From assembly GCA_963848135.1 (NCBI GenBank), contig CAWKCK010000017.1, positions 1 through 64,000 on the forward strand: a stretch of DNA of 64,000 nucleotides, given 5' to 3'. Both the position numbers and the translations under genes were made by a program. Origin of the DNA: an uncultured delta proteobacterium. GTDB taxonomy: Bacteria; Desulfobacterota; Desulfobacteria; Desulfobacterales; SG8-13. The notes beneath the pieces were generated by a model. That model was not told the DNA's origin. It did not search any database and saw only the letters and a program-made list of their open reading frames with translations. Below are positions 48,308 through 60,775 of the stretch, piece after piece (within the stretch, counting starts at the first letter, position 1; each line of letters starts with the position of its first letter).

Positions 48308-48385
48308 TGGCGTCCCCAAGGGGATTCGAACCCCTGTCGCCGGCGTGAAAGGCCGGTGTCCTGGACCGGGCTAGACGATGGGGAC
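48308..48385 (-). tRNA. tRNA-Glu (TTC)
   Basis: GTCCCCA...TGGGGAC-G-CCA cloverleaf, anticodon TTC, GGTTCGAATCC T-arm. Confidence 0.97.
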
Positions 48386-48402
48386 GCAAAGTAAATACCT
48401 TC

Positions 48403-48478
48403 TGGTGGGCCGTGTTGGACTCGAACCAACGACTCTCTGCTTAAAAGGCAGATACTCTACCGACTGAGTTAACGGCCC
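48403..48478 (-). tRNA. tRNA-Lys (TTT)
   Basis: GGGCCGT...ACGGCCC-A-CCA, anticodon TTT. Confidence 0.97.
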
Positions 48479-52027: not shown

Positions 52028-52786
52028 TCAAAGAAAGCTCAGCAGCCCGACGATTGCGATGATACCGCAAAACATCCACCAGTCGCTTTTTCGTACCGAA
52101 AGAATAGGGTCTGTCCGCAGGTCCGAATAGCATCTGGTTTCCATCGCTTCGGTGAGTCGATCGGCGCCTATAAAAAGGCGCCGCAGGAAAGGAATGACAA
52201 AACGGGTGAGTCGATAGACGGGGTTCCGGCGGTTTTCGATTCCGCGGGCCCGTTGTGCATCGAGCGTGGCCTCGGACTGACGGAATACGAGCGGAATGAA
52301 ACGAAGCAGCAGCCCCAACATCGTGCCGATCCGAGCGGCGGGAAGCCGCGGAATCGGTTTCAGAAAATAAACCACAGCGGCTTTGACCGCCGAAGGTCTT
52401 GTGGTGACCACGAAAATCAGACCGTATATGGCCACCAGAATAAGTCGCCATGCCATCAGTGCTCCTGCTATGGCACCCTCGCGGGTCACCGGTATCCACG
52501 ATACGTCCAATAGCGGCACACCCGGCGTCGTTAACGCCCGTGCAAAAACAACCAGCGCCAGGAGCAGAATAAAATAGCGCAGTTCAATCAGAATTTTAGC
52601 CGGTGGCAATCCGACATAGCGGCCCGCTATCACCGCCAAAAGCGATATCACCGCCAGCGGCAGGGAACCGTAAGTCAGTATGGCCAGAGACAGGAACGCT
52701 AAGACGATAAGCTTGAATCTAACATCCAACTTGTGGATGCTGCTTTCGCCGGATCGATAAGTAACAAAGGCACTCAGGCGAGCCAT
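52028..52786 (-). CDS. ECF transporter transmembrane component T
   Basis: HKLDVRFK, LRFIP, AQRARG, AMETRCY. Confidence 0.9.
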   Translation of the reverse strand: MARLSAFVTYRSGESSIHKLDVRFKLIVLAFLSLAILTYGSLPLAVISLLAVIAGRYVGLPPAKILIELRYFILLLALVVFARALTTPGVPLLDVSWIPVTREGAIAGALMAWRLILVAIYGLIFVVTTRPSAVKAAVVYFLKPIPRLPAARIGTMLGLLLRFIPLVFRQSEATLDAQRARGIENRRNPVYRLTRFVIPFLRRLFIGADRLTEAMETRCYSDLRTDPILSVRKSDWWMFCGIIAIVGLLSFL

Positions 52787-53523
52787 GATTCGACCGCCAA
52801 GCCCAGTCGTGACACACACGGTTCCCGGACACCGAACTGCTCGACATCCTTGATAATCTGATCGGGAATGCCGTCCCTGACAATACGACCGGTATCCATG
52901 ATAACCAGACGATCAGCATGGTGGAGGATCTTCTCAAGATCATGGGTGCTGATCAGCAGTGTTTTTCCAGCCTTTTTCATACGCACCATTTCCTTTAGTA
53001 CCTGCCGCGTACCCTTATAATCGAGGCTTGCAAACGGCTCATCAAAAACGACAACCTCCGGATCCATTGCCAAGATTCCGGCGATGGACAGACGTCTTTT
53101 CTCACCGCCGGACAGTGAGAAGGGAGATTGCTCGGAAAGTGCGGTCAGCCCAACTGTCTGCAGGACCTCGCTGACGCGGGAAGAAATCTCGTTCGGCGCC
53201 AGGCATAGGTTTTCTGGTCCAAAAGCCACGTCAGCGGCAACCGTCTCGCCGACAATTTGATTATCGGCATCCTGAAAAATCATGCCCACCAATTGCCGGG
53301 CGCGACGGAGGTCCCGGGCGACCTCTTTACCCTCGATTTTCACACTGCCGGATTGCGGAACCAGAAGGCCATTGAGCTGTTTCAGTAACGTCGTTTTCCC
53401 TGATCCATTGGGCCCGGTGATAACGACCACCGTGCCCTTTTCAAACCTCATGGACACCCCGTCGAGCCCGATGGTGCCGTCCGGGTAGCGGTAACTCACA
53501 TTATCGACATCGATGATGGGCAT
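52774..53523 (-). CDS. ECF transporter ATPase
   Basis: GPNGSGKTT, FQDADNQ, LSGGEKRR, DEP. Confidence 0.92.
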   Translation of the reverse strand: MPIIDVDNVSYRYPDGTIGLDGVSMRFEKGTVVVITGPNGSGKTTLLKQLNGLLVPQSGSVKIEGKEVARDLRRARQLVGMIFQDADNQIVGETVAADVAFGPENLCLAPNEISSRVSEVLQTVGLTALSEQSPFSLSGGEKRRLSIAGILAMDPEVVVFDEPFASLDYKGTRQVLKEMVRMKKAGKTLLISTHDLEKILHHADRLVIMDTGRIVRDGIPDQIIKDVEQFGVREPCVSRLGLAVESWLA

Positions 53524-53624
53524 GGAAAATGTGTCCTGTTGTTATGGGTTACGGGTTGCGCCCCGGTTGAATGACACTGCGTGTCTTCCCATCGAGAATT
53601 CAACCCCGATACCATCTACCGGAG

Positions 53625-54209
53625 CTACGGGGCAGGCGGGGTTAAAGGTTGCGGGTAGTGTGCCGGGGTATGGATCACCGGGCGCAACGCGCGGGCAATT
53701 GGAACAGCCACCGCAATTTTGAGCGCATCTCCCGGCAAAAAAGGAAGCATGCCGACGGCAAGGGCTTTGGTCCACGGCAGTCCGGTAAGCAGCTTGAGCC
53801 AGAAAAGTCCACAGGCATAGAGAACCACCGTACCACAAAGCATGCCCAGAATATCTCCCACCGGGCGCTGGCCGGTTTTGGCAGCGATCCACCCGATCAA
53901 AAACACCGCGGGAAGATATCCGATTAGATATCCGCCGGTCGGGCCGAAAAAACGTCCGACACCACCCGTTCCACCGGCAAAAACGGGTAAGCCGACGGCC
54001 CCGGCCAACAGGTAAATTCCCACACTGGCCAGCCCCCAGCGACCGCCCAAAATAAGACCGGCCAGAAACACAAACAGATTCTGCATGACAACCGGCACCG
54101 GTCCTATCGGCAAAACCATATAGGCACCCACAGCCGTCAGGGCCGCAAATAGGGTTGAATAAACGGTCATTCTCAGAGAAATGGGTTGTTGCGGGTTCAT
54201 TTCAATCAT
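53625..54209 (-). CDS. bioY: Biotin transporter S component BioY
   Basis: GPVPVVMQN, GLPVFAGG, GPTGGYLIG, PFLPGDALK. Confidence 0.93.
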   Translation of the reverse strand: MIEMNPQQPISLRMTVYSTLFAALTAVGAYMVLPIGPVPVVMQNLFVFLAGLILGGRWGLASVGIYLLAGAVGLPVFAGGTGGVGRFFGPTGGYLIGYLPAVFLIGWIAAKTGQRPVGDILGMLCGTVVLYACGLFWLKLLTGLPWTKALAVGMLPFLPGDALKIAVAVPIARALRPVIHTPAHYPQPLTPPAP

Positions 54210-54278
54210 CCTTCGATCAAAGTCCTTTATTTTTCATTTAGCGAGTGTCCATTCTCGAAAAGTTGATGGCACTAATGC

Positions 54279-54420
54279 GTGACCAATTCACAAAAGAGAA
54301 TTTTTTTCGCTGAGCAAGGCCGCACAAGGGTTTGCGGCGAGGCGTACTTTTCGTACGCCACAGTCGGAAACCTGCGGAGAACGCCGCCCAACGTAAAAAA
54401 GGCCATTTATGGATGGACAC
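54279..54420 (-). mobile_element. 142 bp MITE-like element (copy 3)
   Basis: Homologous to copies 1 and 2, with TIRs. Confidence 0.8.
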
Positions 54421-54429
54421 TAGCGAATT

Positions 54430-55359
54430 TTACAGGTGAAAGCAGTCACCATAAAAGATCGTCTTCAATGTCCCATCTGCAAGCTTGAGGATCAGTGACC
54501 CGTTTTCATCCACGTCAACGGCCGTGCCTTCAGACGTCTCACTCTGGGTCTGGATCTTGACCTTGCGACCGATAGTAACCGTCTGGGTCTTCCACTCGTC
54601 AATAACGTTTATCGTATCCAAGGTTTCAAGCCTGGCCTCCAGTGAGGTCAGAAAAGCGGCCAGAAAGGCTTTGCGTGACACCGGCTGCCCAACAATGTCC
54701 TTGATTGACACGGCTCCCGGTACGGTTGAGGATGGATCGTTGTTGGCATTGAGGCCGATACCGACATTGACATAGGCCACCCGGTCGGTCTCTGCCTCCA
54801 TTTCGGACAGGATACCCGCGAGTTTGCGGTCGTTGACCAGAATGTCATTGGGCCATTTTAGCGCGGCGGGAATCCCGTAGAGTTGTTGCAGCGCCCTGGC
54901 CATGACAAGGGATACACAGAAGTTCACCTGCAGGCTGAGCATCGGCGCCAGGTTGGGTCTGAGAACGACCGTGAAATAGAGGCCGCCTTTTTCGGAGGTC
55001 CAATGGCGCTGCAGGCGTCCCCGGCCGAGTGTCTGTCGTTCAGCCACAACTACCGTCAGCGCCGGGCATCCCCCCCGCGCCAGCTTACGGGCAATATCCA
55101 TGGTCGAGGAGACTTCCGGATAAAAATGGATCGCCTTTTCACGCCCCGGAAATTCCCACCGATAGGGCACATCCGGCTCCACCAACAAATGGTAGCCCTT
55201 ACCTGATGTGCTGATGTCATATCCGCATTCCTGTAATTTCTGAATGTGCTTCCAGACGGCCGTTCGCGAGAGACCAAGGATGCTGCTGAGCGCCTCTCCC
55301 GAAACGATCGTTGACTCTTCTCTGAGGAGATTGAGGATTTTTCCTTTTGTTCCGTTCAT
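54430..55359 (-). CDS. birA: Bifunctional biotin ligase/repressor BirA
   Basis: N-terminal HTH (SRTAVWKHI), QTLGRGR, LKWPND, KLAGIL. Confidence 0.95.
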   Translation of the reverse strand: MNGTKGKILNLLREESTIVSGEALSSILGLSRTAVWKHIQKLQECGYDISTSGKGYHLLVEPDVPYRWEFPGREKAIHFYPEVSSTMDIARKLARGGCPALTVVVAERQTLGRGRLQRHWTSEKGGLYFTVVLRPNLAPMLSLQVNFCVSLVMARALQQLYGIPAALKWPNDILVNDRKLAGILSEMEAETDRVAYVNVGIGLNANNDPSSTVPGAVSIKDIVGQPVSRKAFLAAFLTSLEARLETLDTINVIDEWKTQTVTIGRKVKIQTQSETSEGTAVDVDENGSLILKLADGTLKTIFYGDCFHL

Positions 55360-55362
55360 CTA

Positions 55363-55396
55363 TTCGTCAACCTTTAAAATCGCGAAGGTTAACGAA
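55363..55396. promoter_or_regulatory. BirA operator
   Basis: TTCGTCAACCTT-N10-AAGGTTAACGAA inverted repeat (GTCAAC-N16-GTTAAC) directly upstream of birA-bioY. Confidence 0.75.
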
Positions 55397-55498
55397 AATA
55401 AGAAAACCTGTCAACCATAAAACGGAAACGAAAAAAGGCTTAAAACTTTGAAACGTTCAGGCAGGCCAATGAATCGCGGTAATCTAAAGAATGGGGGG

Positions 55499-55933
55499 TC
55501 AATTGATTATTCGAATGATGCGTGGCCGGTACTCATCCTTCTTGCCCATTCGATTGCTGCGCAGCCGGACGAATACAAAAGCCAGAAGGAAAAAAAAGAG
55601 ACCTATCAGCAAGGAAAGGATTGAGGGGTCCAATTGCAATCTCGGACCCATGTTCTGTCCGATAGCAGCCCCAAGTATCATGAGAAGGACCGGAAAGACG
55701 TAGAGCAGAAATGAGACTTTCAACACCGCTGACGACGAAACGCTGAGCACGATCCGGTCGCCCACCTTCGCGCCGGCTTCGTTAAGGGCTTCGACTTCCG
55801 TTTCCTGGCCGTCACTCCCGGTGACGTGGCACGACTTGCGGGACGCTCAACCCCCACAAGCATTGCTGCGGGATGTTTTCACCCAGGCCGTGGCAGCGCC
55901 TATTCTGGTAACAATTCCCTTTTCTGTGGCCAT
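55499..55933 (-). CDS. RseC/MucC-family membrane protein with in-frame TGA (putative selenocysteine)
   Basis: MATEKGIV...SNACGG(TGA)ASRKSC...AGAKVGDRIVL...LLYVFP; TGA at 55847-55849. Confidence 0.8.
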
Positions 55934-55939
55934 AGGTTA

Positions 55940-58009
55940 TCAGGCAACTTTCTCGGTGGGTTCGGCAGCATGACGGTAGCATATCAAACCGCATTGCAAG
56001 CATCGATCGGCTTCGACTCGGGCTGCTGCTTCATCGAAACCCAATTCTATTTCTTTGTGCTTGCCTTCATCGTGGGGTCCCCGCAACGGCATGAGGCGGC
56101 GCGCAGAGGAATTGACGTCTGCAACATGATCGACGTTTTGAACATACACGTCCGGCGTCACGACATTATCAGGAAGATCCAGAGGGATTCCGTACATGAC
56201 TTCATGGACCGATGCGGCAATACGGCGTCCTGCGCCGATGGCCTTTATGGCCGCGCTGAAATCGGTGAAGGCGTCTCCTTTAGAAAACAGGCCGATTTCG
56301 GTTCGGAAGGCCGGTTCTTTGTAAGGGCTCATGCCCACCCAGCGCAAGGGGCCCTCTGCCTCAGGCATGGCATCTGCGGACGCTTCTTCGTCCGTGGTGG
56401 CTGCAAAGATAACTATTTCAGGCAGACGGCCACTGGCAAGAACGAGGGTCCCGGCGGTCAACGACGCCTTTTCGCCGGTTTTCAGATCGACCGTTTCAAT
56501 TCCTGTCAAACGGCTGCCTTCACCTTGAAGTTGAACGATTCCGGTGTTGAACAGAAAGCGGACTTCCCGCCCGGCGAGTTCCTCGAAGAGAGTATCGTCT
56601 AATCGACATTCTTCCTGTGTTTCTCTCAAAACGACAGTGACCTTGTCCCGGCCAATATCCTTGCTGATTCGTGCCGCATCGAGCGCAAGCCGGCCGCCAC
56701 CGTAGATAACAACGTCTCCTTTTACATCGACGCTGGAATCCTTTTGCAGCGCGTTTTTCACGAAATCGAGCATCAAGTAAACACCGGGTATCGGCTCTTC
56801 AACCTTGTGCAGTCCTCCGCGGGCCAGACGACTGTCCCAACCGCCCAGGGTAACCAGCACGGCTTGGTTACCACTCTGCAGCAAGGATTCGACTGTCACA
56901 TCTTTTCCTAACACCTTTTGAGTCTGCGCTTCGACACCCATCTCGAGAACACCATCGATATCCCAATCGAGAACCTCAGCCGGCAGGCGATCGGCAGCGA
57001 TCGCACTTCTGAGCAATCCACCCAATTGGGCTGTCGCCTCGAACAGGGTGGGTGCATGACCCAGTCTCGCCAGGAAGAAGGCCGCCGACAAGCCTTGGGC
57101 ACCCCCACCGACCACCGCAACGCGGCGACCGGTATCCGGGGCTTTGAAAGGCAGGATACGGTTTCCATTCTTCATTTCATAATCGGCCGCATACCGTTTC
57201 AGAAAGTTAATGGCTACGGATTCGTCGACAAACTGCCGGCGGCATTCATTTTCACACGGTCGCGGACAGATCCTTCCGATCACAGCCGGTAACGGATTGC
57301 GTTCTTTGATCACCTGAACAGCGCGGTGATAATCCCCCAGACTTATCTGACGAATGTATTCACAAATATTGATCCCGGCCGGGCAGGCCCGCTGGCAGGG
57401 CGTTGTGCATTCATCGGCTTTGTATTCCTTCAGAATCCTTCGAGTGACTGAAGACAGATTGATAATGTTTTTCGGGCATACGCTTTCACAGGTGCCGCAA
57501 CCGGTGCACAACTCTTCGTCGACAACCGGAAGCCCATCGGACCCCATGACAATCGCGTTGAAAGGGCAGGCGCGCTGACACGTCCCCATTCCAAGGCACC
57601 CGATGGTACACACCTTCATGCCGCCGCTCAACAACGCAGCGGCCCGGCAGTCGTTCAGACCGTCGTAAAGAAATTTCGTGTCCGCGTCGGACACCCCATA
57701 GGTGCAACCGGGACGGGCAATATCCGGCTCCTTGGCTTCAACGCTGACGCCCATAATCGCTGCAATCGCCTCGGCCACATCGGAACCGGCGGCCACGCAC
57801 GAGTTGGGAGCCGCCCGGCCGGCGACGATGGCCTCGGCATTGGCGCTGCAGCCGGGCAAACCGCATCCGCCGCAGTTGGCCCCCGGCAACGTATCTTCGA
57901 CATCCAGAATTTTCGGATCGACGTATACGTAAAATATTTTCGATGCAAAGGCCAGGCCGGCGCCAACCAGCAATCCAAGACTTCCCATCATGATAACGAC
58001 ATCAATCAT
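55940..58009 (-). CDS. RnfB-like ferredoxin fused to GltD/NfnB-like FAD oxidoreductase
   Basis: N-terminal TM, LPGANCGGCG..GC, CLGMGTC..ACP, CTGCGTC, PCQRACP, GRICPRPCE, GGGAQG, EADRCLQC. Confidence 0.85.
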   Translation of the reverse strand: MIDVVIMMGSLGLLVGAGLAFASKIFYVYVDPKILDVEDTLPGANCGGCGLPGCSANAEAIVAGRAAPNSCVAAGSDVAEAIAAIMGVSVEAKEPDIARPGCTYGVSDADTKFLYDGLNDCRAAALLSGGMKVCTIGCLGMGTCQRACPFNAIVMGSDGLPVVDEELCTGCGTCESVCPKNIINLSSVTRRILKEYKADECTTPCQRACPAGINICEYIRQISLGDYHRAVQVIKERNPLPAVIGRICPRPCENECRRQFVDESVAINFLKRYAADYEMKNGNRILPFKAPDTGRRVAVVGGGAQGLSAAFFLARLGHAPTLFEATAQLGGLLRSAIAADRLPAEVLDWDIDGVLEMGVEAQTQKVLGKDVTVESLLQSGNQAVLVTLGGWDSRLARGGLHKVEEPIPGVYLMLDFVKNALQKDSSVDVKGDVVIYGGGRLALDAARISKDIGRDKVTVVLRETQEECRLDDTLFEELAGREVRFLFNTGIVQLQGEGSRLTGIETVDLKTGEKASLTAGTLVLASGRLPEIVIFAATTDEEASADAMPEAEGPLRWVGMSPYKEPAFRTEIGLFSKGDAFTDFSAAIKAIGAGRRIAASVHEVMYGIPLDLPDNVVTPDVYVQNVDHVADVNSSARRLMPLRGPHDEGKHKEIELGFDEAAARVEADRCLQCGLICYRHAAEPTEKVA

Positions 58010-58036: not shown

Positions 58037-59884
58037 TCAAAAGATCGCATCGAACTTGCACTTTTCAAAACAGGTCATGCATTTGATGCATTTCTCTTTG
58101 TCGATGACGGCGACCGTCTTTTTTTTCCAGGCAATCGCCTCGGTCGGGCACGCCCTGAAACAGGCGCCGCACTTGGTGCATATATCAGGTTCCACTTCGA
58201 ATTTGAGCAACCCAACGCAGCGCTTGGCCGGGCAGCGTTTCTCGTTAATGTGGGCATCATATTCGTCCCGGAAATAGCGCAAGGTCGACAGGACAGGGTT
58301 GGGTCCGGTCTGTCCCAGGCCGCAGAGAGAGGCGGAGCGAATAACATCCGAGAGCTCTTCCAGTATCTGGATGTCTTCCGGTTTACCGCGCCCTTCGCAG
58401 ATACTCTCCAGGATCTGGAGTTGACGTCGGGTTCCTTCCCGACACGGTGTGCATTTGCCGCACGACTCGTCCTGGACAAAGTCCATAAAAAAGCGGGCCA
58501 TGTCAACCATACAGGTGTTTTCATCCATCACGATGGCACCTCCGGAGCCCATGATGGCACCGACCTTCGCGATAGCTTCGAAATCGACGGGCGTGTCGAG
58601 ATACTTCTCCGGTATACAGCCGCCCGATGGACCGCCCAGCTGTACCGCCTTGAATTTTTTCTTTTTGGGTATGCCGCCACCGATATCGTAAACAATTTGT
58701 CGCAGGGGTGTTCCCATGGGCACTTCAACCAGGCCGATATTGTTCACGTCTCCCGAGAGGGCGAATACTTTCGTCCCTTTGCTGGTCTCTGTACCAACAC
58801 CGGCATACCACGCCCCTCCCCGGAGCATGATTTGGGGTACATTTGAAAAAGTCTCCACATTGTTGAGAATGGTCGGCTTTTCCCAGAGCCCCTTGTGGGC
58901 CGGAAACGGCGGACGAGGTCGCGGCATTCCGCGCTTACCTTCGATTGATCGCATCAATGCGGTTTCCTCGCCGCAGACGAAGGCGCCGGCCCCCTGGTAG
59001 ATTTCAACATCAAAGTTAAAACCCGATCCCAGAATGTCCTCACCCAGCAGACCGCGCTCTTTGGCCTGCTGGATGGCAATCCCCAATCGACGAACGGCCA
59101 GCGGATATTCGGTTCGGCAGTAAATATAGCCGCGCACGGAATTAATGGCTTTGGCGGCAATGATCATCCCTTCAAGTACGGCATGCGGGTCGGCCTCGAG
59201 TATACTGCGGTCCATGAAAGCCCCGGGATCGCCTTCGTCGGCGTTGCACAGCACGTACTTGACATCATCCCCGCTCATCCGGGCGAAATCCCATTTAACG
59301 CCAGTGGGAAAACCGGCACCACCCCGGCCTCTCAGTCCGGAAATCTTCATTTGTTCGATGATGTCCTCCGGCGACATATCGAAAAGTGCCTTGGCTGCTC
59401 CCTGGTAACCATCGCGGGCAATGTAATCGTTGATCACCTCCGGATCGATCAAACCCTTGTTACGCAGCGACCGCGGCATCTGGTTGGCAAAGAAAGGAAT
59501 ATCGTCAAGGGAAGCAATTCTTTTCTTTGTGACCGGATCCTTAAAGAGGTGTTTCTCGACGGGCTGTCCCTTTACCAACTGGCTGTCGATAAGGTCAGGT
59601 ATGTCTTCCACCGAGAGTTTTTGATAGAAGATGTTTCCTGGATGAATAACCAGGATCGGTCCCATGGCACAGAACCCGTTACAACCAGTTTCCACAACTT
59701 TAACTTTTTCTCCAAGCCCCTTTTCAACGATTTCCTTCTCAAGAGCCGTCTTTACGGCGATACTGCCGGTTGCATGGCATCCGGTACCGCCACAGATCAG
59801 GCAATAGGTCTTGTCTGCGAACGCGACCGCCGGTGCCATCTCTTCCTTGATCTTCTCCAGATCCTCTACCAGCAACTTCGGCAT
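58037..59884 (-). CDS. NuoF/HydB-like NAD(H)-binding flavo-FeS subunit
   Basis: N-terminal thioredoxin-like 2Fe-2S, GRGGAGFPTG, NADEGDPG, CGKCTPCREG, C-terminal 2x4Fe-4S. Confidence 0.93.
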   Translation of the reverse strand: MPKLLVEDLEKIKEEMAPAVAFADKTYCLICGGTGCHATGSIAVKTALEKEIVEKGLGEKVKVVETGCNGFCAMGPILVIHPGNIFYQKLSVEDIPDLIDSQLVKGQPVEKHLFKDPVTKKRIASLDDIPFFANQMPRSLRNKGLIDPEVINDYIARDGYQGAAKALFDMSPEDIIEQMKISGLRGRGGAGFPTGVKWDFARMSGDDVKYVLCNADEGDPGAFMDRSILEADPHAVLEGMIIAAKAINSVRGYIYCRTEYPLAVRRLGIAIQQAKERGLLGEDILGSGFNFDVEIYQGAGAFVCGEETALMRSIEGKRGMPRPRPPFPAHKGLWEKPTILNNVETFSNVPQIMLRGGAWYAGVGTETSKGTKVFALSGDVNNIGLVEVPMGTPLRQIVYDIGGGIPKKKKFKAVQLGGPSGGCIPEKYLDTPVDFEAIAKVGAIMGSGGAIVMDENTCMVDMARFFMDFVQDESCGKCTPCREGTRRQLQILESICEGRGKPEDIQILEELSDVIRSASLCGLGQTGPNPVLSTLRYFRDEYDAHINEKRCPAKRCVGLLKFEVEPDICTKCGACFRACPTEAIAWKKKTVAVIDKEKCIKCMTCFEKCKFDAIF

Positions 59885-59902: not shown

Positions 59903-60256
59903 TTACCAGGACCCGTCCAGGCCCCTCAGTCCGTTCATGTATAGTTTCCCACTGGCAACAAACAAAGAGTAATGGGTTACCATGATGGGCAGCTTGAAGG
60001 ATCGTGCCAGTTCAATGGCACTCTCTTGCGGTTTTTTGCCTCTGACAAAGACGATGGCACCGACGTCGGCGACCTTGGCCGTGCGAATAACATCGTCACC
60101 GGTGTGCCCGGTGAGGATGACGGCGTCTTTGGTGGCAGCGGCGAGAAAAGCATCCATGATGTCGGCCCCCCCGGCGCCGATGACGGTTCTCTCCAACTGG
60201 TCGTTGCCCGTAAGAATTGTCGCCTTTAGGATGTCCCTGACTTCGGAAATTTTCAT
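59903..60256 (-). CDS. DRTGG-domain protein
   Basis: ADIM...VILTG...IRTA...IVFVRGKKP. Confidence 0.8.
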   Translation of the reverse strand: MKISEVRDILKATILTGNDQLERTVIGAGGADIMDAFLAAATKDAVILTGHTGDDVIRTAKVADVGAIVFVRGKKPQESAIELARSFKLPIMVTHYSLFVASGKLYMNGLRGLDGSW

Positions 60257-60280: not shown

Positions 60281-60775
60281 TTATTCGTACTTATTGAGGA
60301 TATCAATGACGGCGTCTGATGATATCGCGCCGTGGGTATCCTGGCCGATCACCATTACCGGCGCCAGGCCGCAGGCGCCCAGGCATCTGACGCCTTCCAG
60401 CGAAAATCGCCGGTCTTCGGTGGTACCGCCCTCTTCTATTTTGAATTCGTTGGAAATCCTCGAAATGACTTCTTTAATACCCTTGACATAGCAAGCCGTG
60501 CCAGTACACACCTTTACGAGGTGACGCCCTTTAGGCTCCATCGAAAACAGGGAATAGAATGATGCCACTCCGAAAACTTCGCTGCTCGACAGGTTCAAGC
60601 CGTCACTGATATAATCGATAAGTACAATCGGCAGGTAGCCGACAATGTCCTGGCACTCTCGCAGCGTGGTAATCACGGCACCGGGTGTATTTTGATTGGC
60701 GGTAAGGGTCGTATTGACTTTTTCCCACATTTCGGCACTGATGTCTGGGTGAGCAGGCGGTGTCTCCGGTATCAT
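60281..60775 (-). CDS. NuoE/HydC-like 2Fe-2S subunit
   Basis: VASFYSLF, VCTGTAC, CLGACGLAP. Confidence 0.92.
   Translation of the reverse strand: MIPETPPAHPDISAEMWEKVNTTLTANQNTPGAVITTLRECQDIVGYLPIVLIDYISDGLNLSSSEVFGVASFYSLFSMEPKGRHLVKVCTGTACYVKGIKEVISRISNEFKIEEGGTTEDRRFSLEGVRCLGACGLAPVMVIGQDTHGAISSDAVIDILNKYE

Follow-up and report, generated by a model that had tools for sequence, protein, structure and literature searches.

The window analysed here (the whole stretch of DNA, 64,000 nucleotides, of an uncultured relative of sulfate reducers) contains, on its minus strand, a run of genes leading up to rseC. The first gene of this same-strand cluster encodes a NuoE-like thioredoxin-like [2Fe-2S] ferredoxin of 164 amino acids (aa) (60281..60775). 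It is followed by genes encoding a 117-aa DRTGG-domain protein (59903..60256), a 615-aa NuoF/HydB-like FMN and Fe-S subunit (58037..59884) and a 689-aa RnfB-like/GltD-like fusion protein (55940..58009), the last of which has its stop codon 6 nt before the ATG of rseC (55499..55933). The N-terminus of the fusion protein is RnfB-like, with a PF04060 Fe-S domain and two 4Fe-4S motifs (176.5 bits against NF005503, which is under the cut-off of 252), and a GltD/NfnB-like NAD(P)H flavoprotein makes up the remainder. NuoE-like, NuoF-like and NfnB-like subunits together are the make-up of the Stn/NfnABC (Bfu-family) transhydrogenases. The 3′ side of rseC is occupied by birA, BioY, ABC ATPase and CbiQ-like genes (52028-55359, minus strand), which look like a biotin ligase/repressor and an ECF-type biotin transporter; birA is found after rseC in several relatives too. 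The rseC locus has no rnf operon, and the genome's best RnfC-like match is located elsewhere, scores under the cut-off and has no TGA codon. A scan of positions 55200-56100 revealed no promoter or terminator. Scanning of the whole window at Rfam gathering thresholds gave only two tRNA genes (48311-48478, minus strand; Rfam tRNA, 62 and 73.7 bits).

The rseC reading frame starts with the ATG at 55933 and comprises 144 residues and a terminal TGA stop codon (55501-55499), provided that codon 29, a second in-frame TGA (55847..55849), is recoded. This codon had been reported to split the open reading frame (ORF) in a previous reading made from the sequence only (the sequence-only reading), and both the minus-strand sequence and the ORF list bear this out: under translation table 11 the gene falls into ORFs of 28 aa (55933..55847) and 88 aa (GTG start, 55765..55499). 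Translation through codon 29 reproduced the peptide ACGG-U-ASRKSC given in that reading. The read-through protein matches the Pfam family RseC_MucC (PF04246) with 123.4 bits (cut-off 24.4), residues 8-141 aligning with positions 1-130 of the 130-position profile. Its score against the NCBIfam equivalog of the E. coli-type RseC (NF008115) is 45.4 bits, far under the cut-off of 184, so the protein is a member of PF04246 and not the E. coli equivalog. In the cysteine triad of the family (here C26-x2-U29-x5-C35), Cys26 (TGT, 55856..55858), the first Cys of C-x2-U, and Cys35 (TGC, 55829..55831) are present, while the TGA occupies the place of the middle Cys, where selenocysteine (Sec29) is proposed. 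The window sequence contains no in-frame start codon between the TGA and the GTG at 55765, so the conserved residues 30-56 can be made only via read-through. Contigs of four DNA runs were checked: one 196-nt contig of run X1, possibly the source sample, covers the rseC TGA and is identical, and the other three runs have no coverage of it.

RseC of E. coli works with RsxABCDGE and is needed for the reduction of SoxR (PMC11729352). Its Cys26, Cys29 and Cys35 are conserved, the N-terminal domain carrying these three cysteines reconstitutes an oxygen-sensitive [4Fe-4S]-type spectrum, and in a two-hybrid assay the protein contacts RsxB and RsxD (PMC11729352). In an acetogen, RseC is needed for autotrophy (PMC9124969). 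The biochemical role of the protein is described as unsettled (PMC11729352; PMC9124969). The window protein resembles E. coli RseC in its Pfam family, in having two transmembrane (TM) helices and in the places of the triad, 26/29/35 (PMC11729352), but codon 29 is TGA and the gene comes after a NuoE/NuoF/GltD-type cluster rather than in an rpoE/rnf cluster. The RseC of Clostridium ljungdahlii, a Cys form encoded beside rnfCDGEAB for which a regulatory or stabilising role is proposed, likewise belongs to PF04246, has two predicted TM helices and is linked genetically to an energy-conversion module for ferredoxin and NAD(P)H (PMC9124969); the window locus differs from it in having a Sec codon and no nearby rnf operon.

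The AlphaFold2 model of the read-through protein has a mean pLDDT of 78.3. It consists of a small beta-barrel (strands 3-11, 15-20, 45-50 and 60-64, together with the C-terminal 138-144) and two predicted TM helices, comprising residues 67-99 (55637..55735, minus strand) and 103-129 (55547..55627, minus strand). The loop with the Cys/Sec residues (approximately residues 21-44) was modelled with low confidence (pLDDT 45-52). A sequence search of the PDB gave no match below an E value of 0.5. Foldseek against the PDB gave no match at E ≤ 0.001 and only a weak likeness to OB folds of the S17/IF1 kind (E ≥ 0.017).

In selenoprotein families, Sec and Cys forms are expected to pair at the same position. 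Genomes were searched with the read-through protein as the query and with stops read through; 743 genomes were sampled. In the set of 41 close relatives, one in-frame TGA each was found in the best orthologue from G007, which shares the genus of the window genome (90% identity), and in those from G016 and G019, which belong to a second genus (about 60%). Altogether 55 loci, drawn from the close-relative search and a wider search (150 of 277 matches listed), were translated; given this proportion, additional TGA forms may exist. Among the matches listed, the C-x2-U form was present in 4 of the 55 loci (the window genome G000, G007, G016 and G019) and the reverse U-x2-C form, with TGA at Cys26, in two (G158 and G076, of two other families; L077, L078). 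The C-x2-C form accounted for 48 of these 55 listed loci, and one had no Cys at the motif. A seventh TGA form, C-E-S-U, came from G640, a genome of another order, when 401 genomes of the phylum were sampled. This alignment with relatives agrees with the claim of the sequence-only reading that the TGA stands in place of the second Cys of C-x2-C-x5-C. The same reading had named a TGA unique to this assembly, with Cys in all close homologues, as evidence against its proposal; the TGA is not unique, as G007, G016, G019 and G640 share it at codon 29. Cys35 is invariant in all 55 aligned sequences and Cys26 and Cys29 are conserved in at least 90% (alignment A1). Across the 56 sequences read, Sec would stand at position 26 or 29 (U29 in five genomes) and never at 35. 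RseC selenoprotein forms appear to be sporadic in Desulfobacterota, and Sec would occupy one or the other Cys position of C-x2-C.

The codons on the two sides of the TGA were compared in two pairs of TGA forms. Between G000 and G007 (L024/L025) there are seven synonymous and two non-synonymous differences in codons 1-28, and four and one, respectively, in codons 30-56. The corresponding numbers for G019 and G016 (L032/L034) are five and three in codons 1-28, and eight and three in codons 30-56. Judged from these differences, both sides of the TGA are under purifying selection, i.e. coding constraint.

In bacteria, a UGA codon is read as Sec with the help of an mRNA hairpin (SECIS). A SECIS-like hairpin is located downstream of the rseC TGA (55808..55830, minus strand), its 5′ foot overlapping the Cys35 codon. 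The core stem CGUCAC (55826-55821) and GUGACG (55815-55810) encloses the loop CGGGA (55820-55816), and an alternative lower stem is formed by GCC/GGC with an AC bulge. The string GCC-AC-GUCAC-CGGGA-GUGAC-GGC indicated by the sequence-only reading lies at 55830-55808 as given there, its first loop base being separated from the UGA by 26 nt. Its fit to the bacterial SECIS model is borne out: a stem-loop with a G-containing loop does follow the UGA, although as a single-sequence statistic this is weak. The 63-nt region folds with z = +0.82, and 159 of 200 shuffled sequences fold at least equally well. The hairpin class, defined after the sequences had been seen, was a stem of at least 6 bp (G-U allowed) with a 3-5-nt loop, a G in the first two loop bases and a spacer of 10-23 nt. 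In the window, the frequency of such hairpins is 5.0% after positions in general (n = 127,840) and 4.8% after TGA triplets (n = 2,434), and the rseC hairpin alone is not beyond chance. The loop of the E. coli-type SECIS has GU, in contrast to the CGGGA of the window, and no match to an Rfam SECIS family was found near the rseC TGA. Two other Rfam matches near the site, blv_FSE (18.5 bits, gathering threshold 34) and a CRISPR repeat, were taken as chance. The source of the blv_FSE (viral frameshift element) match is an alternative small hairpin, GUGGGG...UCCCGC (55831-55857, minus strand), which would have the UGA in its loop.

The comparison between Sec and Cys forms gives the hairpin its meaning, as it co-occurs with the TGA forms and is nearly absent from the Cys forms. 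It is present after the TGA in all seven TGA-form rseC genes (stems of 6-9 bp, 11-20 nt downstream), while among the 48 Cys forms it follows the first Cys codon in one and the second in none. The seven genomes correspond to approximately four lineages and hence are not seven independent observations. Three types of hairpin sequence are distinguished across the TGA forms: CGUCAC-CGGGA-GUGACG in the window and in G007 (where the 5′ arm is UGUCAC), with a 20-nt spacer; UGUCACCU-GUC-AGGUGACA in G019 and G016 (14-15 nt); GCAAGA-GGU-UCUUGC in the U-x2-C forms G158 and G076 (11-12 nt). The hairpin of G640 reads CCUGCC-AGAGC-GGCGGG (13 nt). The case made here for independent origins of the Sec forms draws only on family labels, on Sec at two positions and on the three hairpin types. 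The sole exception among the Cys forms, G103 (L066, locus 1501-1929), comes from the genus of the TGA form G158 and retains the exact hairpin of that form, UGCAAGA-GGU-UCUUGCA, which suggests a recent switch between Sec and Cys, in either direction. The peptide SARGSC does not force the hairpin, since other Cys forms encode SARGSC without it.

The sequence-only reading had made its proposal dependent on the presence of selA, selB and selC. Genes for the Sec machinery, selA (622 bits), selB (374), selD (372) and tRNA-Sec (76.5), were all found in the genome, each over its curated cut-off, and selD has an in-frame TGA of its own. In the other TGA-RseC genomes tested (five, G019 being left out), selA and selB were above the cut-off in every case. 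The established selenoprotein genes of the genome are selD, an fdhA-like gene and five FlpD/MvhD genes, with one in-frame TGA each (G000 loci C5:13077-13445, C18:820179-820541, C18:790555-790917, C18:823972-824340, C5:290036-290407, C18:834823-835566 and C3:479380-480300); the genome is rich in selenoproteins. Stems of 5-8 bp begin 10-22 nt downstream of these TGAs and carry the loops GGUC, GUC, GGA, GGA, GGC, GGC and GUU. The rseC hairpin is similar to these hairpins of the genome's own selenoprotein genes.

A second selB-like gene of this genome is represented by two adjacent matches (G000:C15:43659-45233 and C15:45235-45516; L002, L005), which span profile positions 106-580 and 13-105; the gene may carry a frameshift or be split. 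Two selB matches over the cut-off are likewise present in each of G640 and G076.

Cys/Sec pairing, the constraint on both sides of the codon, the recurrence of the TGA, the tracking of the hairpin with it and the Sec machinery make it very probable that the rseC gene of the window is a genuine selenoprotein gene with Sec at codon 29. SelB bound to the hairpin would deliver Sec-tRNA at the codon-29 UGA, and the terminal UGA, without such a hairpin, would terminate translation. That the TGA is instead a nonsense mutation or an assembly error, the gene being dead or miscalled, is scarcely credible: read-level confirmation in this genome comes from one short X1 contig only, perhaps of the source sample, but the codon-29 TGA occurs also in G007, G016, G019 and G640, synonymous differences outnumber non-synonymous ones on both of its sides, and the PF04246 match is full-length.

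Another explanation takes the TGA as a true stop, the product being either a 28-residue peptide or an 88-aa membrane protein that starts at GTG 55765 and has no Cys domain. Table 11 gives exactly these two ORFs. However, residues 30-56, which would be left without a start codon, hold the invariant Cys35 and are under purifying selection, and the function and interaction of E. coli RseC require the N-terminal Cys domain (PMC11729352). We consider a true stop very unlikely.

Decoding of the UGA by a near-cognate or suppressor tRNA (for Cys, Trp or other) is similarly improbable, and so is a general use of TGA as a sense codon. Near-cognate decoding does take place at selenoprotein UGA codons during selenium shortage. 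However, the terminator of rseC is itself TGA, so TGA is not generally sense in this organism, the genome has the full Sec machinery, and the hairpin goes with TGA and not with Cys codons.

If codon 29 is read as Sec, the predicted N-terminal cytoplasmic beta-barrel would bear the C26-x2-U29-x5-C35 loop, with the two TM helices after it, and by analogy with E. coli RseC the Cys/Sec triad may be a redox site. The genetic context points to a possible partner. E. coli RseC contacts RsxB (PMC11729352), and here an RnfB/RsxB-like domain is encoded by the neighbouring gene. In some 31 of the 55 loci, the gene immediately upstream of rseC is the RnfB-like/GltD fusion, and the same order was observed in 12 of 14 named Desulfobacterales/deltaproteobacterial MAG loci. 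The arrangement varies among the TGA forms: in G640 the fusion gene is directly upstream of rseC, but no NuoF gene precedes it, and in G158 rseC has no fusion neighbour, being flanked by a phosphorylase gene on one side and birA on the other. On the basis of gene order and the E. coli two-hybrid data, RseC may be the membrane partner of the RnfB-like domain in the flavoprotein encoded 6 nt upstream, within a membrane-anchored NuoE/NuoF/GltD-type (Stn/NfnABC-like) NAD(P)H/ferredoxin electron-transfer module. Sec29 would be either a cluster ligand or a redox-active selenol paired with Cys26. This partner and this chemical role are less certain than the selenoprotein reading itself, and we regard the case for them as evenly balanced.

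In-frame TGA codons were also found in the fusion gene. In 4 of the 20 upstream neighbours fetched, the first Cys of the PF04060 motif is replaced by TGA (PGAN-U-GGCGLPGC). These four neighbours belong to G029, G294 and G239, of one genus, and G047, of another (L100, L106, L107 and L111), and RseC is the Cys form in all four genomes. Conversely, the fusion neighbour is the Cys form in the five readable TGA-RseC genomes (G000, G007, G016, G019 and G640). Among these genomes, the codon is thus present in RseC in five, in the fusion neighbour in four and in both in none. The TGA-bearing fusion is probably the catalogued UxxC selenoprotein family NF005503 fused to a flavoprotein. Members of that family are RnfB-like and have Sec at the first Cys of the Cys motif, like the four neighbours; NF005503 is nevertheless a different protein from RseC, and in the window it is the fusion that is the Cys form and RseC that has the TGA.

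A more specific chemistry is conceivable for Sec29, in which it would not be an Fe-S ligand at all. It would be the reactive half of a thioredoxin-like Cys26/Sec29 selenenylsulfide couple, exchanging reducing equivalents with the RnfB-like partner. Sec at either position of C-x2-C, never at Cys35, in the 56 sequences speaks for such a couple, and in Table 1 of PMC13188914 no motif is commoner than UxxC and CxxU. Read from the sequences, this would be the pattern of redox CxxC motifs, while the Sec of the partner lies in an Fe-S motif instead. Against a selenenylsulfide couple, the E. coli N-domain with the same three cysteines reconstitutes a [4Fe-4S]-type spectrum (PMC11729352), and the Sec variant of the partner lies within the PF04060 motif, which suggests that selenium ligation of clusters is tolerated in the module. 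We regard the couple as possible, but less likely than not.

The two positions of Sec in RseC and the third in its neighbour also permit a broader reading of the module. RseC and the RnfB-like Fe-S domain of the neighbour might share one membrane redox site, a bridging cluster or a selenol/thiol relay, at which selenium would be interchangeable between RseC position 26, RseC position 29 and, in the partner, the leading Cys of the motif C-G-G-C-G-x-P-G-C. This proposal is speculative and, in our opinion, rather unlikely. If it is true, RseC would be a catalytic electron-transfer subunit and not a regulator, and the shared site would offer a first handle on the job of RseC in Rnf/Rsx-type systems.

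The selenoprotein reading of RseC also bears on the function of the triad. To our knowledge, nearly all Sec residues occupy positions that are redox-active or bind a metal. Together with this usage, the exchange of Cys for Sec at two positions of the triad argues that the triad does chemistry, and the Sec form of the neighbouring RnfB-like domain likewise points to it. RseC is widespread, and its Sec forms bear on its unsettled function.

Sec within the Cys motifs of electron-transfer proteins has precedents. The RnfC selenoprotein family (25 organisms, PMC5029168) is also an Rnf-related electron-transfer component, although RnfC is a soluble subunit with a fold unrelated to that of RseC. The CxxU selenoproteins HdrA and MvhD/FlpD are Fe-S electron-transfer proteins of anaerobes that likewise have Sec in a Cys motif, but they are soluble and have no sequence relationship to RseC.

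The sequence-only reading did not count RseC among the classic bacterial selenoprotein families, in agreement with its absence from the catalogues and texts searched. A 2026 review (PMC13188914) has no PF04246/RseC entry in its Table 1 of 119 families/subfamilies or in its text. RseC/MucC is not mentioned in the deep-Sep paper (PMC12013277), PMC1976440 or PMC9312934, nor does RseC occur in the text of a 2022 preprint on eight new selenoprotein families. PMC5029168 gives RnfC and not RseC, and the supplement files searched for that paper and for deep-Sep contain no RseC match. Among the papers listed by full-text searches of the literature, none describes RseC as a selenoprotein. The RseC selenoprotein family thus appears to be uncatalogued. 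Its recognition would extend the selenoprotein catalogue by one family, whose members are at present truncated or split by gene callers.

Two further observations concern other parts of the window genome. It encodes two Cys-form RseC paralogues (C12:121411-121800 and C7:112547-112927; L088, L089). These were considered as a link to rnf and rejected, as they lie beside genes for a P-type (E1-E2) ATPase and a heavy-metal-resistance protein and not beside rnf genes; this setting hints at a metal-related role. In addition, a small ferredoxin-like frame with one in-frame TGA and a weak match to the RnfC C-terminus (27 bits) was found at G000:C12:61923-62273, and it may encode another selenoprotein.
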